From a virus, in the IMG/VR virus record IMGVR_UViG_3300008117_006248, positions 24,691 to 88,690 of that record: a stretch of 64,000 nucleotides of DNA. One strand, given 5' to 3'. The notes beneath the pieces are model-generated. The model ran no database searches. It was not told where the DNA came from and saw only the letters and a list, made by a program, of their open reading frames with translations. Within the stretch, counting starts at the first letter, position 1; every line of letters begins with the position of its first letter. The position numbers and the translations under genes are program-made. Shown here piece after piece: positions 17,021 to 58,922 of the stretch.

Positions 17021-17284
17021 TTACCACCTGTTAGCAGGGCAGCTTTCGTAGTCGGCTTTTACTTTCATCGACACGAAACATCCGCAAATCGTGCATCGAC
17101 CTAGATCTCTATCTAGGTCTTTGCATTTACTACATATGTCTAGTCTTTCTTGAGCTTTGTCTTTTTGAGATATTATCGGTCTTCCATTAGCTATTGCTGA
17201 TCCAGCTTTCACCGCAGATCCGCTTAAACTTTTTGAAACCTTCGCTGCTTCTTTAAATAAATCGCTGAAGTCATTTAAGTTCAT
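17021..17284 (-). CDS. Small Cys-rich putative metal-binding phage protein
   Basis: ERLDICSKC..RCTICGCF..K...SCPANRW pattern. Confidence 0.65.
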   Translation of the reverse strand: MNLNDFSDLFKEAAKVSKSLSGSAVKAGSAIANGRPIISQKDKAQERLDICSKCKDLDRDLGRCTICGCFVSMKVKADYESCPANRW

Positions 17285-38509: not shown

Positions 38510-41500
38510 TAGCTTAAGAAGTTAGTGTTTACTAGTTTTATATTTGGTCTATTTTTGTAGATTAAAGTTTGCAAATTTAACGGCTTGCCCGGATAGCTCT
38601 GGAAAGAGCATTGAATAGTCAAGCCATTTTCTGCTAAAGCAATATTTAATTTCGTTAAACCGTTGTCTACTGTAAGCAAAGACTTTAGCTGATCTGAAAT
38701 ACTAGAACAGAACAAATCAGCAGAATAACTTACGTTGGGCTGTAATAAAGATGCGGCTTTATAATCATAAATTGATTTTATTTTTTCGTGAAAGCTTTCA
38801 AAGGTGTCGAATTCATATCTTGGTTTTTGATTTGATCCATATCCTTGGAAATTCATAACTACAGGAGTTCCATCTCCAAAAGCGCCGCCGATTGATTGAT
38901 TACTAGAGTAAGACTGCTCCGTCTCGTCTGCGTAAAGCTCTCTTACATTCGGAGTAATATTATTTACATCTAATTCTAGCGAAAACCCTTCGTTGTTCAA
39001 TATTCTTAGTATGTCATCTTTATCTTCTAGCCCGCCTCTAATAAAGTTTTTAAAAGGAGCGAAAATCTGACTAGAACTCTTGCTCTTTAAAGTAACTATA
39101 TAGTTAACTTGCGATGGCAAAGTTATATATTCTGATTCTAATCTAGTAGTGTTTACCATTGTGAATGGAACTGGAGTAGGAAATCTTGTGCTTCTTACAA
39201 GTATATTGTTTAAAGCTGGAGACGCCAAAGCTAACATGCCACTAGAAGATTGCAAAGATTTGCTAATGTGAGCTGTCAAGAAAGCGTTCGATGGCATTTT
39301 TCTTGTTATATTAAAACGCTGACACTGCATAGAGTCTGGGCCTATACCAAGCAAAGCTGCGTTATTATTTCTTTCAATATTTGATTGCTCTTGCGGATAA
39401 ACACACACAGAATAAAAAATTGTTTTACTGCAATCTTTCTTATTCGCTTGAAGAGTGGCTGGATTCCCAGCCGCAAGCATATCTCTCAATAGAGTGCATC
39501 TTTCTGCTATTTGATTTTGGTATTCTATTGGATTTGTAAATGAATGCCTCGACAAAGTAGTAGGGAATTGATATATCTGGGCAAGAGAATTAAACCCAAA
39601 CATCACTCCAAAAGAATAATTACTTAAAGGAAGATTTGTGACATCTACTGGCAAAGCAGCTCTTAAAACACCTAAAGATACTGGAGATAATTCTTTAAAA
39701 ATAGGAGAATAAGCTTCTGCAAGATTTATTCTTGTGAACTGAGCTATAGAATTATTGCTCATAAAAGAATCACCAGAAACAGCGTAATCTAAATATTCTA
39801 AACCTCTAATTAGCTCTTGGAAAATACCATAAGCTGCGTCATCTCTTGCTAGATAAAATCTTACAGGTTTTAATCTATCTAAAGACTGCACATACTTAAC
39901 GTAAGAAGCCTGAGCTTTACTGCATAAATCCTCTGTGTTAGCTTTTAATCTGTTGAACTCTGAAAAAGCATTGAAATAAGAATCTGTGCCATTATATAAA
40001 CTAGCCAAACTTTCAATCAAAAATTTGGCATCTCTAAATACTGGCAACTTATATATTTCATTTGAATAAACTTTTTGAGTCGCAGGAATTGTTTCTACGC
40101 TATATTGGAGTAGCTCATTCTCATTGCCAGCTATCCCTTCTGTTATGTTTTGTACATCTGTCCAATAATGTTTTCCTATGAAATCAGCGATATAAGATTC
40201 AATAGCTAAAATATTATTAGCTATCGATTCATTATAAAAACCAAGATTCATATTTATTAAAACATTTCCATCTTCATCAAAAGTTAATTCGCTTTGCAAC
40301 TCTAAAGCTCTAGACACAGCCTCGAAAGCTATCAAATCAGCCTGTCTATCTATGTAGCTAAGCCTAGAACCTAGTATGTCTCCGCCCAAAGGCAAGAAAC
40401 CTAATGCTTGATAAGCTCCTATTTGATAATTGTAAATTTCTCTTAGCTTTGGCGCGTATTTACCCAGAACAGCAGATATCACTACCTGCTCATACGTTCT
40501 TTTCGATCCGCAAAAATCATAAGTAGTAGTACCATTAGAAAACAATTGCGGAAATATATCATAGAGCCTAATATTTCTAAATGTTCTATTGCCTAAAATT
40601 TGCTCGTATTCAATATTCTTCTCTCTCGCTTCCTTAAAATAATAAGAAGAGTATACCTTTAGATTTTTTTTACTTAAATCATAATCAAAATCTTGTGATC
40701 TTATGACAAATTGAGAAGAGTCCGAAGCTTCTAAATTTTCCAAGCTTAACTTTGTTTTTAGAACATTTTCTTTTGCTAAAGAATCTGTAAGATCTATTCC
40801 GCGTATTCTAACTTGATTAGATTGCCCAGAAAAATCTACTACATAAGAATAAGAATACTCTTCGCACCATTGGGCTAAAACATTTTTTAATGTGCCAGAA
40901 TATTTTCTTTTAATCTGCTCTCCAGACTTATCTCTTAAAGATTCTATAGCAGAAGAACTACCGCTGCTGCCAGCATCGCCTGAACTAACATTCGACGGGG
41001 CGATTGATATGCCCAAAGCCTTCATTGCTCTAAGCAAAGAGGCGAAAGAGTAATAAGTTTCGGCAGACTTACAAACACTATCTTTAAAATCTTCTTCTCC
41101 CAAAAGAATAATTGCTCCATATCCATTAGTGATTTGCTTTAATGGATCTGTAGATTTTATTATTACATAATTGTACTTACCAGGACCATTAGCTGTGTCA
41201 GTAATTACTTGAGTCGTTGTCGGGTCTATCGTTAATTTTTGGCCTAAATTAGACTCTGCAAAATGCAAAATTTGAGAAAAATTTGATACCGTGACCGATC
41301 CAGCTTTTGAGCCATTAACTGAAGGGCAATTCAATATTATTCTATCTATGGTAGCCTCTTTTTCCGACCTGCTATCTATTGCCACCTCGACTCCTAAAAC
41401 ACCAACATAAATCTTATCTAAAACAAAAGAGTTATCTTTAAAAGTAACTGTCAGAACTTTTTCATTATTCCTTTTTGATAATGAGTAAGAAGATATTTTA

Positions 41501-41952
41501 AAATTTTTGAGTTGATATGTTTTTTTGCCATCGCCATCTGTGATAGTAATATTATAGCTTGTCGTTGGCCCCATGTACTGATCTTCTATCTTAAAATCCT
41601 GATCTATTAGCTGAGAAAGAGTGTCTGAAGTGCCTTTGAAGACTTGGCTTTGGTTATTTATTTGGTTTATTGGCGTGGTTTGAGTATTTCTTGCTGAGTT
41701 AAGTTGATTTAAAAGATCAATGTCTCTTCTCCTCTGCTGCTGCACAGAAAGAGCGCTTTTTGCTTCTTTAAGAGTTTTATTTAAAGCAAGATTAAGAACT
41801 AAAGTGCTTGGATTGCCATCGAATCCCACATCAAGAGATAGGGCGTAAACATAGCCATTAAATAATCTATTCCCAAGATCAACAGGAGGCTGCCCAGAAG
41901 AAAATTGAGTTCTTGTTATATTTATACTGCTATTGTTTTTTACTTGAGCCAT
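38509..41952 (-). CDS. Putative tail-tip/baseplate hub protein (1147 aa)
   Basis: Position downstream of the tape measure gene; YSGTLKNVLAQWCEEYSYSYVVD resembles hub-like proteins. Confidence 0.5.
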   Translation of the reverse strand: MAQVKNNSSINITRTQFSSGQPPVDLGNRLFNGYVYALSLDVGFDGNPSTLVLNLALNKTLKEAKSALSVQQQRRRDIDLLNQLNSARNTQTTPINQINNQSQVFKGTSDTLSQLIDQDFKIEDQYMGPTTSYNITITDGDGKKTYQLKNFKISSYSLSKRNNEKVLTVTFKDNSFVLDKIYVGVLGVEVAIDSRSEKEATIDRIILNCPSVNGSKAGSVTVSNFSQILHFAESNLGQKLTIDPTTTQVITDTANGPGKYNYVIIKSTDPLKQITNGYGAIILLGEEDFKDSVCKSAETYYSFASLLRAMKALGISIAPSNVSSGDAGSSGSSSAIESLRDKSGEQIKRKYSGTLKNVLAQWCEEYSYSYVVDFSGQSNQVRIRGIDLTDSLAKENVLKTKLSLENLEASDSSQFVIRSQDFDYDLSKKNLKVYSSYYFKEAREKNIEYEQILGNRTFRNIRLYDIFPQLFSNGTTTYDFCGSKRTYEQVVISAVLGKYAPKLREIYNYQIGAYQALGFLPLGGDILGSRLSYIDRQADLIAFEAVSRALELQSELTFDEDGNVLINMNLGFYNESIANNILAIESYIADFIGKHYWTDVQNITEGIAGNENELLQYSVETIPATQKVYSNEIYKLPVFRDAKFLIESLASLYNGTDSYFNAFSEFNRLKANTEDLCSKAQASYVKYVQSLDRLKPVRFYLARDDAAYGIFQELIRGLEYLDYAVSGDSFMSNNSIAQFTRINLAEAYSPIFKELSPVSLGVLRAALPVDVTNLPLSNYSFGVMFGFNSLAQIYQFPTTLSRHSFTNPIEYQNQIAERCTLLRDMLAAGNPATLQANKKDCSKTIFYSVCVYPQEQSNIERNNNAALLGIGPDSMQCQRFNITRKMPSNAFLTAHISKSLQSSSGMLALASPALNNILVRSTRFPTPVPFTMVNTTRLESEYITLPSQVNYIVTLKSKSSSQIFAPFKNFIRGGLEDKDDILRILNNEGFSLELDVNNITPNVRELYADETEQSYSSNQSIGGAFGDGTPVVMNFQGYGSNQKPRYEFDTFESFHEKIKSIYDYKAASLLQPNVSYSADLFCSSISDQLKSLLTVDNGLTKLNIALAENGLTIQCSFQSYPGKPLNLQTLIYKNRPNIKLVNTNFLS

Positions 41953-41967
41953 AATCCTTTAGATAAG

Positions 41968-41973
41968 TTACAC
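41968..41973 (-). promoter_or_regulatory. GTGTAA candidate late-promoter element
   Basis: GTGTAA 15 nt before the ATG at 41952, followed by AAAGGA; the same hexamer precedes three other late genes. Confidence 0.4.
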
Positions 41974-43758
41974 GTTAAAATAACCTGTGTCATTATTATA
42001 TATGACTTGGGAAAATGGCTCTAAAGAAAAGGTAGTATATCTTAAACTAAAGTCTGCTAGTTTTTCATAATCCAATCCTTTTACTTGCCTCAATCCATTC
42101 ACCCAAATTTGCTCATCAAAAAGATTTATATTTGTATCAAAATTATTTGAATTATTTCCTGTGTATCTAATCCTATTCATTTCGTGCTTTGGTAATAATA
42201 ATAAATCTCCATCAATAAGATTCGTAGTATAAATAGTTATTGCTCCAGTCACGGCGGCATAATCAATACCAGAAATCAATTTATTGCCATTCAAATAAAG
42301 ATCTCTATGATTGACATAATTGTAAGACAAAACTTTTGTTGTATTTGTTATGTCTTGAGTTGATATTCCAGTCAATGACCCAGAACCAGATATCAAATCA
42401 TATGTTGCAAAGTCTGTAACATCAAAAAAGCTATTAGAATTTATAAAACCACTAGATACAGTAAAGTCTCCGTCGTTATCACCAGTTATTCCTGTCACAT
42501 ATGTGCAAGCCAATCCATTAACATATAAATTAACTAATTCTCCCGATCCAGTATTTAATATTGTATATCTTGCGTCAGATTGAGAAAACTGCGGAATCAA
42601 ATTTACATCTTCTGAATTTTTACCAGAAAAGCTATAAACTTCTTTATTAGAGTCATCAAAATTCGCAAGCAACAATACTTTAGAATTCCCAAATGGAACA
42701 GAATATCTAAAATCTATGATACCACTCGGAGGGCGATAAACTGTGATTTCAGATGTTCCTTGAGCAGCGCCAGTAAGTTCAACTAATTGATATTCATAAA
42801 GATATCCAGTGACTCCTGAATAAAAAAATCCAGTGACCGAAGACCCGTTCGAAGTCGCTGTAACCCCAGAAGCTGGCACATAGCCAGTTATTCCTGTCCC
42901 TACTATTACATTTTGATACTCGACTCCAGTCACAGATAAAAATGTTTCAAATTGAGTCTCGTAAACACCAGAAGCGTAACCAGAACAATAAAATGCTTTA
43001 GCGAATGTATTTCTTTCTGGGAAATCTAATCCCAAATTGAACAACATAAAACTATCAATATAACCACTAAAATTATTATAACCAACTCCAGATACGCCTA
43101 ATCCACCTAAGTAAAAGTTATTAGAATTAGAAAAATCTGCTAAATCAAACTGCACATTTAATGATTTTTTATTTAAAGTATCTTCGAATTGATGCGTTGA
43201 TAATTGTATAGAAGAATCTATTTTAGCAACAGAAATTACATTTTTATTATCTAGCTCTTGGCCTAATGTATAAATTCTTTTTCCATCTGAAGGAGTGCTG
43301 TGCTCGCAAAATAGTCTATTGCATCCATTTATTCCTATAGAAAAACCAGAAATTGCAGATCCAGAATTTTGAGACGATAATATTACTTTGCTTTTATCAA
43401 AAGATCCAGTTTCTAAATGCTTGAATACTATAAAAGCTGTCCAATCTGGTGAATCAAAATCGCCTAATATTTTTAATTTATTTTGGCCGTTGAATTGACC
43501 GCTAACTATTCCTGGATTTACATTACCGCCGCCTACTTTATCGTTATAAGACAGAGCAGGGTTATCATTTGAATAAATATTAGATCCAGAATACTGATAC
43601 TGTATTCCAGTTTGATTATTAAAAATTACATAATTCGAATAACCAGCAGAATCAGTTACGCCTGTATACGATGGATTGCGGAAATCATAATCAATAGAAA
43701 CAGAAGACCTGTCGCAAAAAATAGTTTCTAGAAAACCTGATTTTATAATTTCATTCAT
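41968..43758 (-). CDS. Virion protein with a LamG/concanavalin-like domain
   Basis: GQFNG, WTAF, FSIGING and NFYLGG..NFSGYIDSF LamG-type pattern; repeated LYVNG/LYLNG/IWVNG modules. Confidence 0.6.
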   Translation of the reverse strand: MNEIIKSGFLETIFCDRSSVSIDYDFRNPSYTGVTDSAGYSNYVIFNNQTGIQYQYSGSNIYSNDNPALSYNDKVGGGNVNPGIVSGQFNGQNKLKILGDFDSPDWTAFIVFKHLETGSFDKSKVILSSQNSGSAISGFSIGINGCNRLFCEHSTPSDGKRIYTLGQELDNKNVISVAKIDSSIQLSTHQFEDTLNKKSLNVQFDLADFSNSNNFYLGGLGVSGVGYNNFSGYIDSFMLFNLGLDFPERNTFAKAFYCSGYASGVYETQFETFLSVTGVEYQNVIVGTGITGYVPASGVTATSNGSSVTGFFYSGVTGYLYEYQLVELTGAAQGTSEITVYRPPSGIIDFRYSVPFGNSKVLLLANFDDSNKEVYSFSGKNSEDVNLIPQFSQSDARYTILNTGSGELVNLYVNGLACTYVTGITGDNDGDFTVSSGFINSNSFFDVTDFATYDLISGSGSLTGISTQDITNTTKVLSYNYVNHRDLYLNGNKLISGIDYAAVTGAITIYTTNLIDGDLLLLPKHEMNRIRYTGNNSNNFDTNINLFDEQIWVNGLRQVKGLDYEKLADFSLRYTTFSLEPFSQVIYNNDTGYFNV

Positions 43759-47487: not shown

Positions 47488-50400
47488 TTATCTCTTAAAA
47501 TTCAAGGCTGCTGGTCCTAGTTTTTTGAGTTCTGGAATCTTGTCGAACAAGATGCTGATGATCCCTTGCATTGCTTCGTCTGGAGCATTTTGTATAGATG
47601 TCCTTCCATCTATATTTATAACATTAGAGTTAGAAACACTGCTAGAAGAAGCTCCATTAGGGAATGCTGATGTTATTCCATTTCTCATTGCTTCTGTTAT
47701 TGCATCGGAAAACTCCCCAATTGCAAAATTTGGAACGCTTCCTTGAGCAGCAGATGGGAAAGACATTCTTGGAGCAGACATTCTCATTCTCGAATAAACA
47801 TCCCCAGAAGACATCATGCTGTTGCTCATAGCGGCGAAGTTAGGTACTTTCCCGCTAGTCCTTTCTTGCATTACTTGTTCAGCGGTAATCCTTCTCCTTA
47901 CGGCTTCTTCTAGAACATCCTTGGGGAAATCTTGAGCTCCGGTAGCCGCTGTGTAATCTCTAGAAAGTTGACTATTTATTTCTGGAACAGACATTCCTTG
48001 GATAGCTGCGCCTCTTCTTGCGGCGGCCTCTTCTCTATCTGCGATTACTCTTTCGGCGCTTCTTCCAGTTTTAGTGGCTTCTTCTAATACATCTTGAGAA
48101 AAGCCTTTGGGTATTTCTGGAATTAGATAATTTTTATTACCTTTATTCGCGTTATCTCTTTCCCTCGAATAGTTCCTGTAAGACTCGAATAAACTCTTAT
48201 CTCCTTCGAAGTCTTTCTCTGTGAATTTGCCAAAAGTTTTTTCTTGATCAAGTAAATACAAAGCCTTATCTCTAGAAGTTTTTAGCCCAGAGAGATCTTC
48301 GTTAGGAGTTAGCCCTCTAACTACAGTTTTTCTTAAAGAAGCGCTAAATTTTTCTTGTTCTTCATTTCTGGCCGCTTCTTCTGATTTTATAGCTTGTTCA
48401 TTTTCTTTTGCTACTTTTGCTTTTTGAGCTATGGTTGCAGCTATTCTTTGTTGCTCTTCTTGTTCTTTCTGCTTTTGAGCTCTAGCAGCGCTTATTTCTG
48501 TAAGCTCTTTGCTCAGTCTATCTGTTATTCCTTCTGTGGATAATCCTTGCCCTTTGTTTAGATCTTCCAAGGCAGTTCTTCTAGTTCTAATATAATCTGA
48601 CATAGAAGCTTTTCCTTCTATTACTTCTTTCTTACTTACTCCTTTTTCATATCCAAATCTAGCATTGTTTGCTATAGCTGAAGCTTCTGCTCCAGCTATA
48701 AATTCTCCTAGCGTATTTGCTTTACCTTCAAATCCAAGTTTATTGCCTAATACATTTCCTAATCTATATCCAATCTTTGCAGTAGCTACAGCAGCTCCTA
48801 CTGGGCCTCCTGCGGCAGTTAATGCTGTGCCTAAAACATCTAAGTATCCTCCTCCTTGTTCTGCTTTACCAAATAAAACATCAGACCAATTTGATGCTAA
48901 TTCGAAATTTTTCGCATTGACTATATCTCTTGCCAATCCTATACCTGCAGCAGCCCCGAATGCTTTGCCAGCTAAACCTTGGGCTCCTTTGCCTAAAATT
49001 CCAGCTAAACCTGACGCCCCGTAAAGCCCAGCTTGAGTCGCAGAAACAGCAGCGTTTCCGTATTGGCCAGCCTTGAACTCATCTCTAGCTTGCAAACCGC
49101 TAGTCAAAGCTCCTGATATGCCAGCTCCACCAGCAGCTAACTTGCCTAATGCCCCCGTAAAAGTGAGAGGCAAATTTTTTGAACTCACAAAACGGCCTGT
49201 TGTTGGATCTCTGAGAGGCTTGCCCTTGCTTTGGCTGCCACTTTTAATTAAATTACTGACCAAGCCAGTCCCTAACGCAAGCGAAGCAGTTCCGTATATT
49301 GCCGCATCAACTTTATTTCCTTGGTTAAAAGCATCAACGGCTTGCGCCCCTAGCGCGGCGGCAGATAAACCAGAAAGAGCAGTTCCTCCTTTGTTTATCG
49401 CATTTTTGCCAAAAGACATTAAGCCAGCACTAGCTTGCCCTAATAGACCTTTAGCTCCAGTAAACAAATTAGATCCAGTAGAACCCAATTTGCCAGCAAT
49501 ATTTTGTGCTTGATCATATAAAGCTGGCCCAACTTTACTAGCTAATCCTTTGGCTTTAGAGAACTGATCTTTTACAGAATTTAGTATAGAAGAAGACAGA
49601 CTTGGCTTCTGAGAAAATCCGGAAGGAAGGCCGCCAGACAGCCCGGCAGAAGACCCTATAGATGGCCTTATTGATTGAGGCAAAGCAGGCGCTCCAGTAG
49701 GATTAATACCTACCGCCGGAGATCCACTAGCCAAACCTCCTGGTAACGGTTTTTGTCCAAAAATATTTTTAACTAGCTTTTCGGATAATCCTCTACCCAT
49801 AAAACCTGTAGAACCAGTTTTATCGCTTGGATTTATCTCGAAAACAATAGTGCCAACTCGCCCTCTTCCTCCAGAATAAAATTCTCTCGACTTAACTCCA
49901 GCATCTAAGGCTGATTGCAAAGTCGTGCCTCCGACATCTACTCCAAAAAATGCATTTTTAATTCCTTTACTCTTTACTAAAGCTCTGATAGAGTCGAAAG
50001 CAGAGGCTTCCGCTGATCTCCTAAAAGATCTAGTCATCTTAACGGCTTCGCTTTTCGAAAGTCCAGCGTCCATATAAGCTTTTATGGATGGCCCGGCAGA
50101 AGGATCAAACCCTGTCGCCTTTAAAACCGTTCCACCTTTTATTATTTTAATATTTCCTTTATCGTCTACAGCTACGTGGACTCTTAATTCATTATAATAA
50201 GTAGGAACTTTTTCTTGAGTAAAAAATCCACTACCTGTACCTCTATTAAATTTACCGATTATAGATCTAGCATCTGCGGTTGTAAGCTTCCCACCTAATC
50301 CATAAACCCCTTTGCTTTGGACATTTGATTCGCCGAAAGCTGTTTTAATAAGAACATCTTTGCCACCAGAAATTTTATCAATTTGAGCTAATAAGTTCTT

Positions 50401-53400
50401 AGGAGTCAATTTGCCTTGTTTATCCAGCTTAGTGAGAATGCTATCTATAGATTTTGATCTGGCTATTCCTGGTAAACTTAATTCATCTAATTTAGTTACT
50501 CTAGGATCCTTTAAAGCAAGAATAGATTTTTTCCCAACGCCTTCGCTTAATTCTGTCGATATTGTTCTGGCGCCTCTAGGCAAACTTTTAGAATCAATTA
50601 AAGAAGTATCAACAGTTCCATTCGGATTTACTTTTCTAAAACCATTGTCTATATTATCCCATACATATAATTTTCCAAGCTTGGCGTTTTCTCTAGCTCT
50701 TAAAGCCGCTTTTTCTCCGAAAGCAGCATAATTGGGAACGAATCCCGAAGACCTCATACCCAAACTTCTAAGTCCGTTTTTTTCATCTATGCTATTCGTA
50801 ACCGCAAAACCGAAAGGATTGGATTGCGTTACTAAATCTGGACTTCTTTCCAAATTAATATTAGCCATAGCGAAATTTGGGACACCCATTATCCCTCTGC
50901 TGGCTAGTGCTGTTTTTTCTCTATTTACGGCGTCTGCTATCGAGCTAGAATATTTTGTTAAACCATTTGCATTGCTTGGTATTCCAGTCGGCATTAATCC
51001 GCCCATACCTGCGTAAGCAGAAGCGGCTGCCTTGACTTTAGATTCGTTACTTGCTTCTGATAATTTTACTTCATCAGCTGTAATATTCGCTAAAGTTGTC
51101 TTAATGCCTGTGGTCCCGAATGTAGACTTCAAGCCATTTTCAAAAGCAGTTATTAAAGCCTTGCTTTGAGATTGAGATATTTCTATTAATTTTTCTTTGA
51201 TGGGAGAAATTGTATTTTCTAAAACTCTTAGAGCCGCATCTTCTGTTTTGGCTTGTCTTACTGATTCTACATTAAATTTTTCGAGATCTCCCATCGCCTT
51301 CTGAATATCTTTTGGAATTTCAGGGCTACCGAATAAAGCATTAGTTTTAAGCCCGGCAGATTCAAGAAGATAACTTTGATCAAAAGCTTTTCCTCTCAAC
51401 AAATTAGCAGTTTGTCCGAGACCCATCATTTGAGCCATGCCAGCTCTTCTGAAGAGATCTTTTTGCATGTCAAAAGCATTTAGCCTTGTTAATTCTGCTT
51501 TTACAGCTTGGATATCAGAAGGTTCTTTGCCTCCTTTGGTCATTAATAAACCTGGATATTTCTGTAAAGTATCAGTCAAAAAGTCTGTCGCCCCAGCAAT
51601 TTGGCCTCTTCTAGAACCAATCATTGATCCTAATTGGTAAGTTAATGGTCCCCTTATGGAAGAAGCCATTGCCTCTGCTCTCATTTGAGGATTCAATGAG
51701 GCTCTTATATCTCCACCGAAAGCTATTTTTTCTTGCAGAGCCAAAAACTTTAATTGTATTTTTTTGGACTCTTCGGCTATTATTGTTGCTTTATTTATAT
51801 CTCTTGATTGCTGAGAATTAAAATCAATAAGCTTTTGTATGCCTTTGGATTGTGCTTCGCTAAGTCCTGGTAATTTTTGTAAGCTTTCTAATTCTCTACC
51901 CGCGCCCGCGCCCGGGGCCTCAATATTTCTTAGTCTGGCTTCTACCGCAGGAGACAAGTTAGCCAGAAATTCTTTATCATTTAATTGAGTCAATAATGAA
52001 TTCTGGAAAGAAACCGCAGCATCAGCTTTCTTTATCGCCAGCGTAGCCTCTGAAGAGGCAGATATGCCAGCTCGTCTGCTGAATGTTCCTGCTAGTTCTG
52101 CCAATTCTGGAAGTTGTTGTTCTAAAGCTTTCTTTATTTCGGTTCTTATATCTCTAGCATCTTCGACAGCTTGTCTTCTTGAAGCTAATGGCTTGCTTAT
52201 TCTTGCTATTTCTTTTGCTTGCGCGGAAGTAATTTTTTCAATTCCTTGGGCCACTTTTAGTGCTTCTATAAAAGCTTTTTTCAATTGATCAGTATTGAGT
52301 TGATCAGAAAATTCTTTTACGTCTAATCCGGCCTTCTTGAGTATTTCGCCGAAATTAGCTGTAGTAGCTTTAGAAAGATCTGTTTTAAATATATCAGTGT
52401 TTGCCCTATTTATTATTTCATTAAAGAAAGAGCTTAACTCTGCTGGGGCTTGTTCTCCAGTTATCTTTCCTTTTCTTCCGAATTCTAAAGCAGAAGTTCT
52501 TATTGCTTCTTGTGTTTGTGCTTTCTTTAAATTTTCTTCTAGTACAGTAATTTGATCACTAATTGATGTTTGCCCAGCCAATCTAGAAATTAATTCCGGA
52601 TTCTTTATTGATATTTTCTTTATTAAGTCTTCTCTAGTTTTGACAAGCTTTACTATTTCTCTAGGATCTGCTTTTGGGTCTTTGTATGCAGCATCTAATT
52701 TAGACAAAGAAGCACTAAGCTCTGTTGTATTTTCGGCCAAGTCTGTGAAAGCTTTCTTAGAGCGGTCTAGTGCATTTTCAAATTTTTTGCTTTGGATTCT
52801 TTGATCTAAATCTCCTCCTGACAATTCGCCCAACTTAACGCCACCATAAATTTGCGCTGCGCCTGTTAATCCAGCAGCTATTCTGCTGCCCGTTGAAGCT
52901 TTTTTAGACAATATAGCTGTTCCTATATTTTTTACGCCTGCGGAAGCTGGCAAAGCTTGACTTATAAATTTTGACACAGCAGAAGGAATCACTTCTCTTT
53001 CTGCCAATTCATCTATTATGCTGGCGTAAGCTTGTTTTTCAAAAAGTTCTAACGCTCCAGAAATTGGATTGGCAAGTTTTCCGCCTGCTTTGCCAAAAAA
53101 ACGAGATATTAAAGCTGTTGGAATTTTAGCGAAATTAGGAACTACGTCTTTTAACCCATTAGGCTCATCTTTTTTGTTTGTTACCGCTATTGGATTTCCG
53201 CCTCTATCAAAATGAGCCATAATTTGAGAGGCTGGTAAGCCACTCATTGTTTTTTCTCTTCCTATAGCATCTGATAAGCCAGCAAAATTAGGAATGCGCC
53301 CGCTTGCGAATCCAATAAGTTTAGATATTTCATCTCCCTTTTCAAATCTCATTCCGAACGGAAAAAAAGAAGCGAGTGGTTGATATCTAGTATTTGATGG

Positions 53401-56400
53401 GTCAGATTTGTTAGCTGAAACTTTTACTCCAGTTAGTCTTTCAAATTCTGAAGGAAGATCTATGCCTTTAGAGAGAGAAGTTTGAGCGTCTGCATAAGTA
53501 GATCTTGGATATAATGGATGATAAGAGTTTGGAGCGGCAACTATGCCCCCGACATCAGATACCCTTGAAACAACAGAGGAAACAGAATACTTATTTTCTC
53601 CAGAGTATTTTTCTACCATTGGATCATGTAGCCCGGCAGCTCCTTCTCTAAATTTTTTGCCTATAGCTATGGCGCTTAGTCCTTTTTTTGTTAAATATTT
53701 TACTGCCTGATCATAAAGAGCGCCAGTGCCGAGCAAAGACGCACTTGATGGATTTATAGACAAAACAGATTGAACGAAAGAGGGAGGGAAATCTTTTTTA
53801 TTTTTAGATACTAATTGTTGCAAGAAAAATATATTTCTTTTATTCATCCCGCCTTTAGCAGTTCCATATTTATTTATAGCGCTAGATGGAACGTGAGGCG
53901 CGTAATACGCTCTTCCGCCTTGTTTTTTGGCATAATCATGCAAAACTTGCATTGCGTCTACGCCAGCAGATCTTGCTGTAGAAGCATAAGATCTATTAGG
54001 AAATTTTAATCCATATCCAATACCACCACTAATTTGACTAGAAGGATCTAAATTAGCTTTAAGAGAATCATAAGCGCTAGTTAATATTAAATTGGGACCT
54101 TCTCCACCTATTATTAATTTTTCTGGATTAACTTTAGCAAAATTAGGAACATATCCGCCTGCCCTTCCTTCAATGCCAGATAAAGCAGATCTTACTGTCT
54201 CTGGGCTATATTTTTCTTTATGTACGCTATTAGATTTAAAAATAGCAGCCTGCAGACCTGCCGCTCCAGTTTCTATTTGATGTAATTTAGCAAATTCATT
54301 AGCTAGTGATATCAATTTTGCCGCTTCTGTTTTGCTAGGTTTTTTGCCTCCAAGGATTGCTTGGATTACATTTGTATCTATTGGAAAGGCTGTTTTATCT
54401 TGCAATATTGCTCTGGCGTAATGTCTGGTTTTGGCTGTATCATCACTTCCTAAATCAACCCCTCTTAAAGCCTTCGACAAACCATATCTTCTGGCATCAT
54501 CTCTAGTTCTTATATTTCCTTCGGCAGATATTTCGCCTTTTTTGCCGAATAAACCTAAAGACGCTACATTTTTGTGCCTGCTAACTATTTTTGATGGAGC
54601 TAAATCAAAATAATCTTCTACATTAGTAGATTTTGTTTTCATGTACCTGTTGAATATTGGAGCCGCGAATTGAGCAGCTACATAATCAGGCACAGAAGGA
54701 GAAATAGCAGAAGTTATATTAGCGTAAATTTTAGCTTCTTGTGGGGAAAGTTTTTTGCCACTAAATTCTTCGCCATGTATATTATAAAATCCTGCGTAAT
54801 CCTTTCCTTGTTCATAATGCTTTTGAAATCTAGCAAAGATTTCTTTCTTTCCAATTCTTTGGATGATGTCTTTGCGTTTTGCAAAATTAGGGATTCTACC
54901 TCCAGCAAAATTTGTTACAATGTCACTAATGCCAAAAGATCCATCTATAATGCTATTTCTTAAAAGTTTTGCATCTCCTTTAAATTTTTGAGACGCTAAG
55001 CCAGCAACTATAGAAAAAATATTTTTACCACTTACTTTACTATTATCATAAGTTAAACCATCATCAATATTTACTGACAATGCGGTATTTTTAGCTGAAC
55101 CTTTTTGTCTATGTATTAATTGAGGAAAGGCGACCTTTAAAACTTGTTCTATGCCATACTTTCCTGATCTAGCTAATGAAGCATCTGTTATATCGTAAAC
55201 ATCATTCGCTTGGGAAGACAAAGACGCGCTTCTTACCGGCAAGCCCATTCTTTTAGCTGTCTTGCCAAGTCTTTCGAACATTTGCCAACCCTGACCTTTG
55301 GCTTCGCTTTTAGAAAAAGTTAAGTCTATAGCTTTTTTATCATTAGATAATTTATATCTAAGATAACTGTAAGTCTCTGGATCTACAAATCTTCTATCTC
55401 CAGAAACAAAAGATTTTGTAGAAGAAAAAGCAAAATTAGGAACATAACCTCCAGCATAAAGAAAATCTTCTTTTTTACCATACTGTGCGTCTTTAACAAA
55501 AACAGTATTTCCAATTTGAATAGCCTTAGAACCGCCTACGACTGGTTTTTTTGTTTTTCTGTCGTAGTAATATGAATGTCTATCAGGATTAAAGCCTACT
55601 TGAGTCCAGCTACTTAGATCTTTCGGTAAAGATTGATTTTCGGATAGAGTCCCTGAAATTTTTAACAATGGACTTTTATTTGCTCCAGCACCTATGGCTA
55701 AAGAAGCTTTTTCCAAAGCAGTAGATTTATTCATCACTGGATTATCAAAAGCTACAAATGAATCGTAGGACTTAAACCCTTCTGGGCCTAGAGTCTTGAC
55801 TACTCCTACGCCTTTTCTAGTCATAGAAGGAACATCTTGACGCACACTTATGCTGCTTCCAGCAGGAAGTTCTGATAATTTTCCTACTCTTTTAGCTTGC
55901 TCTTTATCTAAAGCATTTCTAATCAAAGATTTCGAAGGTAAATTTTTTATAGAAGAAGGCGCGACTACTTCTCTTATTGGTATATCTCTTTCTATTAAAG
56001 CTTCCAACAAGTCTCTATCTATATTTTCTCCAGATTGAAGTTTTTGCAGCATCCCTCTGACCTCTGGCGAATACATGCGGCCAGCTTTAATTGCAGCTTT
56101 GCTCTCTGGGTATTTTGCAAGAAATTCTTTTGGCATTTTATTGGTCTTGGACCAAGAAAAATTAGGAACGTATCCAGAACTCATTCTGGGGATATCTTGC
56201 ATTTTTCTATATTTAGGAATTATCGCGGTGTCTCCTGTGCCAGCAAAGTTAGGAATAATATCCTCTTCGCTATTGACCATTACTGGCTGAGTCTTGCCTT
56301 TAATTGTCGCTTGTATTAATTTAGCTTTTGGATTTTTAGCTCCATAAGCCTTGGCCATAGCGACCTCTTCTTGAGCTCCGCCAAATGTCGGGACATATCC

Positions 56401-58023
56401 AGAAGCTCTTACTCTGCTTGGGCCGCCTCTAGCAACAACTGTAGGAATTATTCTAGCCCTTAAAGCTTCTTGTGTTTTTAGTTGTTTATTTTGCTCTCTT
56501 AAAGTTTGCAATACTGCTTGCTCCGCTGCGGCCAATGAAATAGTTCCCTTTTGCACAAGAGCAACCAATTTAGGACTTTGTGATAAAATATCATTAACAG
56601 CTTTTTGTGAAGCTAATGATTTTTCTCCAGCGAATACTTCATCAAAATTTTTGCTTACATCTTTTATAGAACTAACTCCGAATTTAACCATCTTAGCTAA
56701 CAAAGTGCCTCCGATTCCCACTAGAAGAGGGATGCTACCAGTCGCTATAGTTTTTCCAAGGGCAGAGGCAGCCCCTTTAAAAAAAGACTCTCCTACAGAT
56801 TTGCCGCTTTCCTCAGATTTTCCTAAAAGATCACTCGTAGGATTTACTGCTTTTAATAATATTTCAGAAAATGAACTACCGATCCTAACTAGCGGCTCTA
56901 ACAATGGCTTACCTAATGCGGCAGCAGCTTCCTGAGCTTGGTTTTTTGTTTGTTGTAATAAAGCTGATAAGCTCTTATTTAATTCTTCGTTCTTTTTCTT
57001 AGCTTCATCTGTTGCTGCGCTAGAAATTTTTAAAGCACTAGCATAAACGCTATTTGAGCTAGAAAGATCTTTAATTAAAGCGTTAACTTGGTTGATTTGG
57101 TAAATACCACCAATTAATTCTGCTGTTCTTGATTTTTCTATCTGACTTAAATTTTTTGTAGCATCAGCGTAATTCTTAAGCACGGACAAACCATCCAATA
57201 AGAATCCATTTTGATCTTTAATAGCAACACCCAACTGCTCCAACTGGCTAAGAACCTCTGGTCTTTGTAGGCGAGTAAATATTGTCTTTAAAGCGTTACC
57301 AATTACAGCGCCACCACGACCAGTTATTTGTTGAGCGGCTGTAACTGTAGCTATTAGCTTGTCTATGCTGATTCCACTTTCTTCCGCAGAGCTACCTACA
57401 CGGCTAAGAGCCTCGTTCAATTGAGCAGAGCTAACAGCAAATCTTGTATCAACAGCAATTAACTTATTGACAATGTCTGTTGAAGTCAAGGCTTCTTTAT
57501 TGAAGCTATTTATTGCAGTAGTGACACCGTTTACAGCATCTGCATAACTAATTCCAGATATTCTTGCTAGTGTTAAAGCATCTTCTGTTCTTCTTAATAC
57601 TTCATTAGCAGACAAACCTTGTCTTGCAAATTCTTTAGCAGCTTCAGAAGCAGCCTCGAAAGGAACAGCAGCATTTCTTGCTACTTTAAACAATGACTGA
57701 GAAAATCCTTCTAGCTGATCCCTAGATTGTCCTAAAAATGTATTTAATTCTACAAGTTGCTTATCTATTTCTACTGTGGCTCTTGCGCCAGCTCTAATAG
57801 CTTCTGAAACTTTATAAATCGCACCAGCGGTTAATCCGAAGGCTGTAACGCGGGCTGTAGCAGCTTCCAGAGATTTTCTGAACTCTGTAACATCGCCGCT
57901 TATCCTTCCTAATGGTTGACCAAATTTAACAGAAGACGCTCTTTTACTAATACTATCAAAAGCTACGTCTACCTGCTTTGTGTTTGGTATAAGATTTACA
58001 TTTACGTTTACATTAGCTGGCAT
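47488..58023 (-). CDS. Tail tape measure protein (3511 aa) with multiple inserted cargo domains
   Basis: N-terminal TP901-type TMP domain (EFARQGLSANEVLRRTEDALTLAR, GGAVIGNALKTIFTRLQR), Ala/Gly-rich helical and coiled-coil regions, and canonical position after the tube/chaperone genes. Confidence 0.88.
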   Translation of the reverse strand: MPANVNVNVNLIPNTKQVDVAFDSISKRASSVKFGQPLGRISGDVTEFRKSLEAATARVTAFGLTAGAIYKVSEAIRAGARATVEIDKQLVELNTFLGQSRDQLEGFSQSLFKVARNAAVPFEAASEAAKEFARQGLSANEVLRRTEDALTLARISGISYADAVNGVTTAINSFNKEALTSTDIVNKLIAVDTRFAVSSAQLNEALSRVGSSAEESGISIDKLIATVTAAQQITGRGGAVIGNALKTIFTRLQRPEVLSQLEQLGVAIKDQNGFLLDGLSVLKNYADATKNLSQIEKSRTAELIGGIYQINQVNALIKDLSSSNSVYASALKISSAATDEAKKKNEELNKSLSALLQQTKNQAQEAAAALGKPLLEPLVRIGSSFSEILLKAVNPTSDLLGKSEESGKSVGESFFKGAASALGKTIATGSIPLLVGIGGTLLAKMVKFGVSSIKDVSKNFDEVFAGEKSLASQKAVNDILSQSPKLVALVQKGTISLAAAEQAVLQTLREQNKQLKTQEALRARIIPTVVARGGPSRVRASGYVPTFGGAQEEVAMAKAYGAKNPKAKLIQATIKGKTQPVMVNSEEDIIPNFAGTGDTAIIPKYRKMQDIPRMSSGYVPNFSWSKTNKMPKEFLAKYPESKAAIKAGRMYSPEVRGMLQKLQSGENIDRDLLEALIERDIPIREVVAPSSIKNLPSKSLIRNALDKEQAKRVGKLSELPAGSSISVRQDVPSMTRKGVGVVKTLGPEGFKSYDSFVAFDNPVMNKSTALEKASLAIGAGANKSPLLKISGTLSENQSLPKDLSSWTQVGFNPDRHSYYYDRKTKKPVVGGSKAIQIGNTVFVKDAQYGKKEDFLYAGGYVPNFAFSSTKSFVSGDRRFVDPETYSYLRYKLSNDKKAIDLTFSKSEAKGQGWQMFERLGKTAKRMGLPVRSASLSSQANDVYDITDASLARSGKYGIEQVLKVAFPQLIHRQKGSAKNTALSVNIDDGLTYDNSKVSGKNIFSIVAGLASQKFKGDAKLLRNSIIDGSFGISDIVTNFAGGRIPNFAKRKDIIQRIGKKEIFARFQKHYEQGKDYAGFYNIHGEEFSGKKLSPQEAKIYANITSAISPSVPDYVAAQFAAPIFNRYMKTKSTNVEDYFDLAPSKIVSRHKNVASLGLFGKKGEISAEGNIRTRDDARRYGLSKALRGVDLGSDDTAKTRHYARAILQDKTAFPIDTNVIQAILGGKKPSKTEAAKLISLANEFAKLHQIETGAAGLQAAIFKSNSVHKEKYSPETVRSALSGIEGRAGGYVPNFAKVNPEKLIIGGEGPNLILTSAYDSLKANLDPSSQISGGIGYGLKFPNRSYASTARSAGVDAMQVLHDYAKKQGGRAYYAPHVPSSAINKYGTAKGGMNKRNIFFLQQLVSKNKKDFPPSFVQSVLSINPSSASLLGTGALYDQAVKYLTKKGLSAIAIGKKFREGAAGLHDPMVEKYSGENKYSVSSVVSRVSDVGGIVAAPNSYHPLYPRSTYADAQTSLSKGIDLPSEFERLTGVKVSANKSDPSNTRYQPLASFFPFGMRFEKGDEISKLIGFASGRIPNFAGLSDAIGREKTMSGLPASQIMAHFDRGGNPIAVTNKKDEPNGLKDVVPNFAKIPTALISRFFGKAGGKLANPISGALELFEKQAYASIIDELAEREVIPSAVSKFISQALPASAGVKNIGTAILSKKASTGSRIAAGLTGAAQIYGGVKLGELSGGDLDQRIQSKKFENALDRSKKAFTDLAENTTELSASLSKLDAAYKDPKADPREIVKLVKTREDLIKKISIKNPELISRLAGQTSISDQITVLEENLKKAQTQEAIRTSALEFGRKGKITGEQAPAELSSFFNEIINRANTDIFKTDLSKATTANFGEILKKAGLDVKEFSDQLNTDQLKKAFIEALKVAQGIEKITSAQAKEIARISKPLASRRQAVEDARDIRTEIKKALEQQLPELAELAGTFSRRAGISASSEATLAIKKADAAVSFQNSLLTQLNDKEFLANLSPAVEARLRNIEAPGAGAGRELESLQKLPGLSEAQSKGIQKLIDFNSQQSRDINKATIIAEESKKIQLKFLALQEKIAFGGDIRASLNPQMRAEAMASSIRGPLTYQLGSMIGSRRGQIAGATDFLTDTLQKYPGLLMTKGGKEPSDIQAVKAELTRLNAFDMQKDLFRRAGMAQMMGLGQTANLLRGKAFDQSYLLESAGLKTNALFGSPEIPKDIQKAMGDLEKFNVESVRQAKTEDAALRVLENTISPIKEKLIEISQSQSKALITAFENGLKSTFGTTGIKTTLANITADEVKLSEASNESKVKAAASAYAGMGGLMPTGIPSNANGLTKYSSSIADAVNREKTALASRGIMGVPNFAMANINLERSPDLVTQSNPFGFAVTNSIDEKNGLRSLGMRSSGFVPNYAAFGEKAALRARENAKLGKLYVWDNIDNGFRKVNPNGTVDTSLIDSKSLPRGARTISTELSEGVGKKSILALKDPRVTKLDELSLPGIARSKSIDSILTKLDKQGKLTPKNLLAQIDKISGGKDVLIKTAFGESNVQSKGVYGLGGKLTTADARSIIGKFNRGTGSGFFTQEKVPTYYNELRVHVAVDDKGNIKIIKGGTVLKATGFDPSAGPSIKAYMDAGLSKSEAVKMTRSFRRSAEASAFDSIRALVKSKGIKNAFFGVDVGGTTLQSALDAGVKSREFYSGGRGRVGTIVFEINPSDKTGSTGFMGRGLSEKLVKNIFGQKPLPGGLASGSPAVGINPTGAPALPQSIRPSIGSSAGLSGGLPSGFSQKPSLSSSILNSVKDQFSKAKGLASKVGPALYDQAQNIAGKLGSTGSNLFTGAKGLLGQASAGLMSFGKNAINKGGTALSGLSAAALGAQAVDAFNQGNKVDAAIYGTASLALGTGLVSNLIKSGSQSKGKPLRDPTTGRFVSSKNLPLTFTGALGKLAAGGAGISGALTSGLQARDEFKAGQYGNAAVSATQAGLYGASGLAGILGKGAQGLAGKAFGAAAGIGLARDIVNAKNFELASNWSDVLFGKAEQGGGYLDVLGTALTAAGGPVGAAVATAKIGYRLGNVLGNKLGFEGKANTLGEFIAGAEASAIANNARFGYEKGVSKKEVIEGKASMSDYIRTRRTALEDLNKGQGLSTEGITDRLSKELTEISAARAQKQKEQEEQQRIAATIAQKAKVAKENEQAIKSEEAARNEEQEKFSASLRKTVVRGLTPNEDLSGLKTSRDKALYLLDQEKTFGKFTEKDFEGDKSLFESYRNYSRERDNANKGNKNYLIPEIPKGFSQDVLEEATKTGRSAERVIADREEAAARRGAAIQGMSVPEINSQLSRDYTAATGAQDFPKDVLEEAVRRRITAEQVMQERTSGKVPNFAAMSNSMMSSGDVYSRMRMSAPRMSFPSAAQGSVPNFAIGEFSDAITEAMRNGITSAFPNGASSSSVSNSNVINIDGRTSIQNAPDEAMQGIISILFDKIPELKKLGPAALNFKR
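47722..56409 (-). repeat. Dispersed peptide repeat (A/S)(G/S)G(Y/R/F/K/S)(V/I)PN(F/Y)A within the TMP, about 12 copies including degenerate ones
   Basis: Copies at about 56382-56409, 56240-56260, 56155-56184, 55429-55458, 54880-54909, 54136-54165, 53281-53310, 53128-53148, 50869-50886, 50725-50751, 47833-47859 and 47722-47748. Confidence 0.9.
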
Positions 58024-58043: not shown

Positions 58044-58049
58044 TTACAC
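58044..58049 (-). promoter_or_regulatory. GTGTAA candidate late-promoter element upstream of the TMP gene
   Basis: The minus strand reads AGTGTAATCTACTGAAGGAAACAGGTTATG. Confidence 0.4.
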
Positions 58050-58546
58050 TATAATCCGTGCATTTCGATAAAATCTTGTTTTGTGAGCTTACCACCTTTT
58101 TTCGCGGCCAACTCGTTGAGTGTCACAGCTTTACCGCCCACCATTTTTTCTAGCTCTTCTCTTGTTGCTCCAGTATAGCCTACACCACTCGACTGGCTTC
58201 CCGCAGTTGGCATAGAAGCAGAGTTTTCTACCGACTCATACCATTCTATCATTTTGTCTGGATCAGAAACTACGTCAGATGGAGGATTTGTTTGGGCTTG
58301 ATTTTCCATCAAAGACTTAAAGTACTTTGCCTGAGAGAATAGATTTACCTGTAATATAGTTAAATCTTTCACATGTTTGCCAAAAAAATTTAAAGGACTA
58401 TTTTCGCATAAATTAAAAAGACTCATGAAAAATGAACAAGCGCAAATTCTCTTTATTTTATCGTGAGCGAACTTTTGGTAAAAACGCGTTAAAATAAGAA
58501 CAAGATTATCTAACTCTCTATCCGATAATAAATCAAATTCTTCCTC
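58049..58546 (-). CDS. Downstream half of a frameshifted or split putative tail assembly chaperone
   Basis: The frame is open for 40 codons upstream of the ATG at 58426 (EEEFDLLSDRELDNLV...) and overlaps the end of 58533-58922 in the +1 frame. Confidence 0.55.
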   Translation of the reverse strand, partial: EEEFDLLSDRELDNLVLILTRFYQKFAHDKIKRICACSFFMSLFNLCENSPLNFFGKHVKDLTILQVNLFSQAKYFKSLMENQAQTNPPSDVVSDPDKMIEWYESVENSASMPTAGSQSSGVGYTGATREELEKMVGGKAVTLNELAAKKGGKLTKQDFIEMHGL

Positions 58547-58922
58547 TTAATTCAGAGAGTTGCTTTGTATAGTTTTTTATTTTGCTTTTTGCGTCGTTAA
58601 TTTGTTTTTTTATGATAAGATTTTTCAGTAACATTTCTGTATCTGAAATTTGACGCTCTAAGTTTTGTATTTCTTTTTCTTTTTCATTAGACCATAGTTG
58701 ATTTCTTATTAAAAAAGTAAGTTTCTCTTCTTTAGACTCTAGTCCTTTATCTGTTGCTTCTTGGCTAAATTTTCTTCTATATTTATCTAGATCTCCGTTC
58801 TCTAGCTCAGTGAAGTGTTTAATAAAAATAGGCTTTCCTAAGTATTCATCCTCAGAAAAGCCTACAGCTATCTCTTTGTACAAGCCTTTGTAAAAGCTTA
58901 TTTTTTCATAAAGATCGCTCAC
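58533..58922 (-). CDS. Upstream half of a putative tail assembly chaperone
   Basis: 129-aa helical ORF between the tube and TMP genes; ends AGA GGA AGA ATT TGA. Confidence 0.6.
   Translation of the reverse strand: MSDLYEKISFYKGLYKEIAVGFSEDEYLGKPIFIKHFTELENGDLDKYRRKFSQEATDKGLESKEEKLTFLIRNQLWSNEKEKEIQNLERQISDTEMLLKNLIIKKQINDAKSKIKNYTKQLSELRGRI

Follow-up and report, generated by a model that had tools for sequence, protein, structure and literature searches.

The stretch of DNA analysed here, hereafter the window, comprises 64,000 nucleotides of the IMG/VR virus record IMGVR_UViG_3300008117_006248 (positions 24,691 to 88,690). It is part of a single 88,690-bp contig and resembles a portion of a large, very poorly annotated phage genome. 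Positions 47488 to 58023 on the minus strand form a stop-free frame of 3,511 amino acids (aa) plus stop, whose N-terminal third shows similarity with tape measure protein (TMP) families. PF10145 (PhageMin_Tail) matched at aa 119–301 with an E-value of 3.9e-26 (92.6 bits vs a cut-off of 33.2), and 10 TMP families and one family of unknown function of PHROG matched with their best stretches inside aa 21–573 (best E-value, 4.7e-48). Beyond ca. aa 570 of the TMP, no Pfam or PHROG match was obtained. Based on these similarities, this open reading frame (ORF) is assigned as a true tail TMP of the TP901/PhageMin_Tail type, in agreement with the N-terminal TMP domain claimed by an initial annotation made from the sequence.

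The TMP is punctuated by a short peptide, hereafter the junction motif. The pattern [VIL]P[NT][FY][AGS] matched 12 times, with Pro at aa 545, 591, 620, 862, 1045, 1293, 1578, 1629, 2382, 2430, 3394, and 3431; the initial annotation had claimed about 12 copies, and the six sites that it had located (56155–56184, 55429–55458, 54880–54909, 54136–54165, 53281–53310, and 50725–50754) were exact as 10-residue windows. PNFA alone occurs nine times in the TMP, compared with a mean of 0.0285 over 2,000 shuffles of the protein, none of which reached nine. When the six-frame ORFs of the entire 88,690-bp contig were scanned, [VIL]PN[FY] was found 11 times in the TMP ORF and three times in all others.

Split at the motif, the protein consists, in order, of a 548-aa N-terminal domain, two spacers of 46 and 29 aa, four cassettes (A to D), a 51-aa unit, a 753-aa segment, a 48-aa constant unit, a 964-aa segment, a 37-aa unit, and a 77-aa C-terminus; the coordinates of these features below are all on the minus strand. 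The N-terminal constant TMP domain (aa 1–548; 56380..58023) is 100% identical in the relative P0006 and belongs to segment cluster 1, which has 79 segments. It is followed by the three scaffold copies of the motif with Pro at aa 545, 591, and 620, between which the constant 46- and 29-aa spacers lie (56155..56409). P620, N621, and F622 are invariant in alignment A1, which consists of 19 TMPs with 37–90% identity and in which conservation is independent of the motif search pattern. Each of the next four modules has the motif, of the form (A/S)-(G/S)-G-(Y/F/R)-(V/I)-P-N-F-A, at its end: cassette A (aa 624–865, 242 aa; 55429..56154) is also found in giant or polyvalent proteins that are not TMPs and shows a relationship to PF25735; cassette B (aa 866–1048, 183 aa; 54880..55428) represents the most widespread family (alignments A4 and A9) and is a candidate minimal GNAT-like domain; cassette C (aa 1049–1296, 248 aa; 54136..54879) has no Pfam or PDB match; and cassette D (aa 1297–1581, 285 aa; 53281..54135) is a distant homologue of cassette family cl15. 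These lengths run to the end of the following motif; the initial annotation had given ca. 230, 170, 240, and 275 aa.

Cassette D is followed by the constant 51-aa unit 0a (53128..53280), which has the motif on each side, falls in a cluster of 106 segments (cluster 0), and contains many invariant columns of A1. The constant central segment S2 (aa 1633–2385; 50869..53127; cluster 2) is the presumed ruler; helix formers account for 51.5% and aromatic residues for 4.8% of its residues, and it has no Pfam family. The constant 48-aa unit 0b (50725..50868), delimited by the motif split and segment clustering, again has the motif on each side. Segment S5 (aa 2434–3397; 47833..50724) starts with a conserved domain of ca. 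330 aa, which is followed by a Gly/Ala/Ser-rich region and then by a charged, helix-rich region. At the constant C-terminal end (47491..47862), two motif copies (Pro at aa 3394 and 3431) lie 37 aa apart, and P3394, N3395, and F3396 are invariant in A1. The motif-bounded units of 51, 48, and 46 aa (50725–53280 and 56242–56409) have R-E-K near their start and N-P-x-A-V-T-N-x-x-D-E-x-N-G-L before the closing motif, and the 51- and 48-aa units flank the central ruler segment. Aromatic residues make up 7.9–9.8% of modules A–D vs 4.7–4.8% of the N-terminal and central scaffold segments. The description of the modules as globular rather than helical is in line with this approximately twofold content, a support that is compositional only. 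At the sequence level, these features show an ordered array of four apparently independently evolving domains placed between the N-terminal TMP domain and a long constant segment that presumably acts as the ruler.

Comparisons of closely related TMPs revealed the exchange of whole cassettes at the motif. In P0006, 11 segments are 96–100% identical to those of the window TMP and the other two are replaced: an unrelated 235-aa cassette of family cl10 stands in place of cassette B (20% identity), and cl15, a distant homologue, in place of cassette D (24% identity). Whole cassettes are gained or lost cleanly at motifs in four further near-identical pairs. The loci L104 and L021 have 97% DNA identity, and L104 has an extra 588-nt cassette placed between perfect 18-nt direct repeats encoding Y-I-P-N-F-A, of which L021 has a single copy at the site. 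Between the window and L020, which encodes a 2,855-aa TMP, blocks of 90–96% DNA identity break at aa 622, 1044, 1297, 1577, 2440, and 3364, and at five of these six breakpoints a motif is no more than 10 aa away (binomial, 1.1e-5). Cassettes A and B are absent from L020, in which cl15 takes the place of D and the S5 segment is different. These results show that the codons of the junction peptide are the crossover point at which whole cassettes are deleted, inserted, or replaced in frame. The exchange is recent and precise, with near-identical proteins differing by whole cassettes.

To compare the arrays more widely, the module region was searched, and 116 giant proteins were collected; since they were picked by module similarity, architecture counts come from a biased sample. 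Three or more copies of the motif (up to 18) were present in 84 of the 116, while the other 32, which are non-TMP proteins, have none or one. When the 84 motif-rich TMPs were split at the motif, 807 segments were obtained, which fell into 133 clusters. Those of the scaffold are constant, and the variable ones lie between the second N-terminal spacer and the first unit of ca. 50 aa. Among 66 TMPs, there were 54 cassette orders composed of 58 cassette families, with 1–10 cassettes each, and the order of the window recurred only in P0005. All-vs-all comparison of the cassette families with hhalign gave a whole-domain alignment for cl9 and cl15 only (97.5% probability) and a partial match of 105 columns between cl10 and cl18 (81% probability); every other hit was confined to the last 9–33 residues, that is, to the motif and a little upstream. 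The claim that the modules are unrelated to each other therefore holds at the profile level, where the alignments are limited to the terminal 10–19 residues, which form the motif. The homologue comparison proposed with the initial annotation likewise gave a conserved motif and scaffold, inter-motif modules differing in identity and number, and breakpoints at the motif.

Because the module-seeded sample is biased, a second search was seeded on the N-terminal scaffold alone. The numbers of sequences encoding relatives of this scaffold were at least 341 for IMG/VR contigs and 233 for metagenome stretches. In the loci kept, three or more motif copies occurred in 58 of 73 long IMG/VR ORFs and 48 of 53 metagenome ORFs (chance expectation, 0.034 per ORF). 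No copy was present in six of eight long ORFs from genome contigs, which are distant TMPs of Bacillus, Lachnospiraceae, Dorea, and Streptomyces with ca. 25–30% identity in the N-terminal part. In three metagenome loci (L154, L162, and L127), the TMP frame is broken by stops away from motifs; these are probably assembly errors or pseudogenes.

In a logo of 549 distinct junctions, the consensus was A/S (73%), G/S, G (79%), Y/F (60%), V/I (97%), P (100%), N (99%), F/Y (99%), and A/S (96%), the last five positions being partly set by the search pattern itself. Conservation around the motif is asymmetric: it is strong from −4 to +4, and nothing is kept after the motif. In A1, P-N-F is invariant at aa 620–622, 1578–1580, 1629–1631, 3394–3396, and 3431–3433, and the last site is invariant from P3431 to A3434; several of these sites are scaffold positions that are never cassette junctions. 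All four Pro codons are used among the 12 copies in the window. Over 218 copies, a mild bias against the gene background was observed for ATT (83% vs 50%) and CCT (63% vs 39%), and the remaining codon positions of the motif are at background usage. Since the scaffold copies are invariant and synonymous codons vary among copies, the junction peptide is shown to be under selection at the protein level, scaffold sites included. The DNA microhomology that permits crossover largely follows from the constrained peptide and AT-rich codon use.

Cassette A links the array to polyvalent proteins, which are outlined by Iyer et al. 2017 (PMC5512222) as giant virion-associated proteins with a string of unrelated domains, proposed to enter the host with the DNA. 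The 32 motif-poor giant proteins mentioned above match the window TMP over ca. aa 621–875 only, namely cassette A and at most a few flanking residues. Relatives of cassette A are encoded in 99 IMG/VR stretches. Among the 80 loci kept, the motif is repeated in only two TMPs (8 and 11 copies); a single copy is present in one of the remaining 78 ORFs and none in the other 77. PF25735 (Phage_L5_gp82) spans the stretch homologous to cassette A, scoring above the threshold in P0092 and P0088 and just below it in P0101. P0101 also holds LPD38 and ART-PolyVal and is therefore a true polyvalent protein, and four other non-TMP giant ORFs with cassette A have no Pfam family. A search of proteins near the cassette in length (133–424 aa) gave two matches to cassette A. 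These and the near-length match of cassette C described below were read as fragments because their contigs are only 979–4,202 bp. Judging from these similarities, cassette A represents a polyvalent-protein domain of phages, and motif-free versions of it are present in large proteins of other phages. Other cassettes among the relatives point in a similar direction: TMP P0096 has an ART-PolyVal-like stretch (aa 880–1037) between motifs at 852 and 1052, and cassette family cl16 corresponds to DUF7178, which also accompanies GNAT and L5_gp82 domains in P0092, a non-TMP protein. The relative P0033 has a precomputed VanY hit. Pfam families were detected in three of 140 non-redundant cassettes, DUF7178 twice and GNAT once. 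The window TMP itself has no LPD, ART-PolyVal, MuF, or zincin-like peptidase signature in Pfam.

The four cassettes of the window are mutually unrelated, and none of them received a significant activity assignment from the Pfam and PDB profile searches. Cassette B of the window matched no Pfam family. The top PDB matches of its profile were AcrVA5 (6iuf; E-value, 0.05–0.06) and the minimal acetyltransferase At1g77540 (E-value, 0.56), neither of which is significant; both align on a region consisting of a strand, a G-x-G loop, and a helix, and G53 and G55 are invariant in A9. AcrVA5 (6IUF) is presented as an acetyltransferase anti-CRISPR in PMC11021501. Two of the 23 rows of A4 matched Pfam GNAT families (best E-value, 4.6e-5), and when the PDB search was rerun without these two rows, the top match was the same (E-value, 0.064). 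We consider that cassette B is, at even or slightly better odds, a minimal GNAT-like domain. In four metagenome loci (L131, L132, L137, and L135), three paralogues of the cassette B family with ca. 30% identity are arranged in tandem, each closed by the motif.

Cassette C had no Pfam family at E-values up to 5, and its profile (A5) found nothing relevant in PDB; with these results, a resemblance to HhH-GPD glycosylases, considered as a candidate, was not supported. Among proteins of 136–434 aa, cassette C had one match, a 219-aa protein that covers 77% of the module with 99% identity. Cassette D had no Pfam or PDB match; phmmer against 1.84 billion representatives gave four matches, two giant and two short proteins. 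The initial annotation had placed an ATP-grasp module after the motif at aa 2430, which was not confirmed: the segment had no Pfam match at E-values up to 5, and its A7 profile found nothing relevant in PDB. In an hhalign comparison of the ca. 330-aa domain of S5 with E. coli RimK, the probability was 0.7% (E-value, 0.077), with 74 columns aligned on the canonical Lys-strand and Q-E-x-I region. Nothing relevant was found in PDB with the A1 and A6 profiles either.

The TMP gene sits within a block of large ORFs on one strand, a virion (late) gene setting. Two small ORFs of 129 and 125 aa (58533–58922 and 58049–58426) adjoin it upstream (58049..58922, minus strand) in the position of tail assembly chaperones, an assignment by position only, and neither has a PHROG or Pfam match. 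Downstream are large ORFs of 634, 603, 596, and 1147 aa, all without a match in PHROG or Pfam. Also downstream on the same strand are a second giant ORF, which encodes 3,243 aa (23590–33321), and four more ORFs of 936–1,165 aa (17281–20778, 20778–23588, 33308–36562, and 38509–41952). PHROGs gave no match for the ORFs of 1,165, 936, 1,084, and 1,147 aa, nor did Pfam for the latter two. Among the scanned proteins neighbouring the TMP, only a single weak match to PHROGs and Pfam was obtained, that of the 461-aa ORF at 37124–38509 to head closure Hc2 (E-value, 4.4e-8) and a virion structural protein. The 596-aa downstream protein (41968–43758, minus strand) is 57–60% identical to homologues in four loci (L003, L023, L122, and L124). 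The downstream proteins of these loci (596–830 aa) contain LIPN(F/Y)S at ca. aa 388, which was regarded as a chance resemblance to the junction motif because the rest of the motif is missing and the context is different.

No match to the TMP gene was found by megablast against 50,697 phage records. With the N-terminal 640 aa as query, the only tblastn matches were TMPs from phages of Bacillus, Lactococcus, and Staphylococcus, similar in the N-terminal domain alone. Since the best cultured phages show only ca. 25% identity, the TMP has no cultured relative and no virion proteomics. With the module region, tblastn found only three hypothetical proteins, which belong to one uncultured Caudoviricetes record and two Roseobacter phages. 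Among genome-binned sequences, the nearest relatives are contigs of metagenome-assembled genomes labelled Crocinitomicaceae, Flavobacterium, and Flavobacteriaceae, the Crocinitomicaceae and Flavobacterium genomes being from lakes; this binning, the sole basis for a host assignment, hints at a host from Flavobacteriales. The closest DNA relatives, L020, L101, and L111, are on contigs of 133,805, 152,913, and 165,597 bp. The genome of the window may be incomplete because these contigs are much longer than its 88,690 bp.

We favour the interpretation that the TMP cassettes constitute an exchangeable payload array and put its probability at about 0.6. The cassettes would be payload domains of the polyvalent-protein kind, carried in the tail with the TMP; they would leave the virion together with the DNA or before it, and the host would be their target early in infection. 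This interpretation is based on three points: cassette A, DUF7178, and ART-PolyVal are common to polyvalent-type proteins; the turnover of cassettes is rapid, as in an arms race; and a TMP fused to a virion RNA polymerase is already known. This precedent, gp96 of Thermus phage P23-45, is described in PMC10770324 as a TMP of 5,002 aa with a working virion RNA polymerase as its N-terminal part. Of the modular effector-delivery system put forward in the initial annotation, the cassette array is strongly supported, while the effector part is plausible but thin.

Several observations weigh against the payload interpretation. None of the window cassettes is significant against Pfam or PDB, and 137 of the 140 non-redundant cassettes from the fetched loci have no Pfam family at an E-value of 0.001. 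Outside these TMPs, no relatives of cassettes C and D were seen at the sensitivity applied. As for cassette B, the GNAT-positive rows of A4 were not significantly tied to the B core once their C-terminal extension was cut off (a core-only hidden Markov model gave 8–11 bits on the two rows, neither of which was a hit when the search space was set to one million sequences), and hhalign found no match between A4 and the GNAT-bearing P0092. A scan of the TMP and 10 neighbouring proteins revealed no peptidase domain. In addition, the order was collinear in 24 of 28 family pairs co-occurring in three or more architectures, and the alternatives cl6/cl10, cl8/cl16, and cl9/cl15/cl11 were never found together. 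The array thus resembles a series of slots, each open to alternative occupants, with optional extras, and not a product of free shuffling, which weakens the picture of arbitrary cargo. This pattern fits fixed functional slots, possibly structural, as well as free cargo, and leaves room for the occupants of a slot being very diverged versions of one function.

The slot-like order brings in an alternative in which the cassettes would be fast-evolving domains of the ejection machinery that are either structural or in contact with the host envelope, for instance by binding host factors of the periplasm or inner membrane, and that are swapped slot by slot as the host range shifts, with the motif as a structural repeat. 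TMPs of lambda and HK97 rely on host membrane or periplasmic proteins, and such a role would account for the collinearity and for exclusive alternatives of similar length (cl8, 248 vs cl16, 241 aa; cl9, cl15, and cl11, 258–290 aa), among which cl9 and cl15 are distant homologues. The confinement of cassettes C and D to these TMPs and the large share of cassettes without a known family also suit it. However, cassette A and DUF7178 occur in non-TMP multidomain proteins beside ART-PolyVal, LPD38, and GNAT, and one TMP cassette is itself ART-PolyVal-like. Furthermore, a number of cassettes ranging from 1 to 10, gained or lost between near-identical phages, is hard to square with a fixed structural role or a strict ruler. 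We therefore regard this alternative as unlikely. Another alternative concerns the motif, which would have no protein function of its own and would be a pure recombination joint whose DNA is copied and homogenised by frequent recombination. The 18-nt direct repeat around the cassette insertion, the breakpoints at motifs, and the mild synonymous bias (ATT and CCT) would be expected of such a joint. In contrast, the motif residues are invariant at scaffold sites that are never junctions, in homologues with 37–90% identity; the peptide is kept while its synonymous codons differ, with all four Pro codons in the window; and the other codon positions are at background usage. A joint without a protein-level role is thus very improbable.

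Under the payload interpretation, the function of the junction peptide can be envisaged in more than one way. It may be a TMP-specific adapter, a docking or clamp element that would let the ruler, the chaperones, and the tube tolerate globular inserts, with the cassettes staying attached to the TMP like the RNA polymerase of P23-45 gp96. Alternatively, in line with the initial annotation, it would be a proteolytic or autoproteolytic site, which would make the TMP a polyprotein from which cassettes are freed as pre-made enzymes in the maturing tail or, after ejection, in the host. Backbone cleavage at Asn is known in the capsids of nodaviruses and tetraviruses and at the NPTH motif of FlhB/YscU, and the TMPs gpH of lambda and pb2 of T5 are processed. 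An Asn invariant in 99% of the 549 junctions, conservation restricted to −4 to +4 as at many cleavage sites, and the absence of the motif from the same domain in non-TMP proteins would be consistent with cleavage, and processing has been proposed for polyvalent proteins in the text of PMC5512222. On the other hand, besides the negative peptidase scan, the motif is in no other phage protein beyond chance, and cleavage at copies 29–51 aa apart around conserved mini-units would give small conserved peptides of no obvious use. Among the 255 fetched loci, there was no natural gene split at a motif and no separately encoded protein with a terminal motif, and P23-45 gp96 is described in PMC10770324 as active while fused. 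Cleavage, at the invariant Asn or after the Ala, is regarded as the second most probable role of the peptide, below even odds. We lean slightly, and tentatively at less than even odds, to the adapter with attached cassettes because no peptidase was found, the motif also brackets the mini-units of 29–51 aa, and the studied precedent acts in the fused form. It is also conceivable, although doubtful, that the nine-residue peptide is a self-sufficient plug-in signal, by which any folded domain with the peptide on its flanks would be spliced into the TMP, loaded into the tail lumen, ejected, and released at the invariant Asn, either autocatalytically or by an unrecognised protease of the tail or the host.

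The array is well established as an observation and unproven as a delivery system, and it is kin to polyvalent proteins and to TMPs with embedded enzymes. As in polyvalent proteins, the TMP is a giant polypeptide of unrelated domains whose gene lies among virion genes; moreover, cassette A is found in LPD38/ART-PolyVal proteins, and a relative has an ART-PolyVal cassette. Unlike polyvalent proteins, the carrier here is the TMP, every domain is fenced by a conserved junction peptide, and no zincin-like peptidase or MuF is present. The main text of PMC5512222 has no occurrence of "tape measure". Like P23-45 gp96, the window TMP would carry a cytoplasm-acting enzyme into the host in the same polypeptide. 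Going by its description, gp96 differs in having one fixed N-terminal enzyme, no repeated junction peptide, and no cassette exchange. Cell-wall hydrolase domains are embedded in the TMPs of T5 (pb2) and mycobacteriophage TM4, and in these cases as well, globular enzymatic domains are tolerated inside a TMP and leave with it on ejection. Those of T5 and TM4 are single peptidoglycan-directed penetration domains, whereas here there are up to 10 exchangeable domains, none of which is recognisably muralytic in the window.

Modular, tube-loaded TMP-related effectors of the Sle1 type, with an exchangeable functional domain, occur in actinobacterial contractile injection systems, according to the abstract of PMC13277306. 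They have one C-terminal functional domain and belong to a contractile injection system, not to a phage, and a junction motif is not described in that abstract. VENN and similar motifs are known in polymorphic toxin systems. As in these systems, a short conserved peptide marks the place where variable domains recombine; they have a single C-terminal toxin with an immunity gene, whereas the present array is internal, has multiple cassettes, and is part of a virion protein. The account of polymorphic toxin systems in PMC3482391 likewise places conserved demarcation motifs ahead of variable toxin domains. According to a survey of mosaicism among phage proteins (PMC10684548), genuine recent cases could not be confirmed for TMPs, and the window locus supplies clear ones. 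When the junction-peptide strings were searched in the literature, none of the matches listed was on phages. We found no publication describing such a motif-fenced TMP array in the texts available, and supplementary domain tables may hold relevant architectures.

TMPs have usually been regarded as proteins that measure the tail and form a channel. In a widespread clade of uncultured aquatic phages, this ruler contains an array of exchangeable domains. If the cassettes are delivered payloads, they would represent a second polyvalent-protein route, via the tail instead of the head, and would make available dozens of uncharacterised domains that are candidates for host modification or anti-defence. 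In that case, the junction peptide would serve as a natural adapter by which proteins are loaded into a phage tail. If the peptide were moreover a true plug-in signal, a large clade of uncultured aquatic phages would be running a natural protein-injection system that is programmable by recombination.

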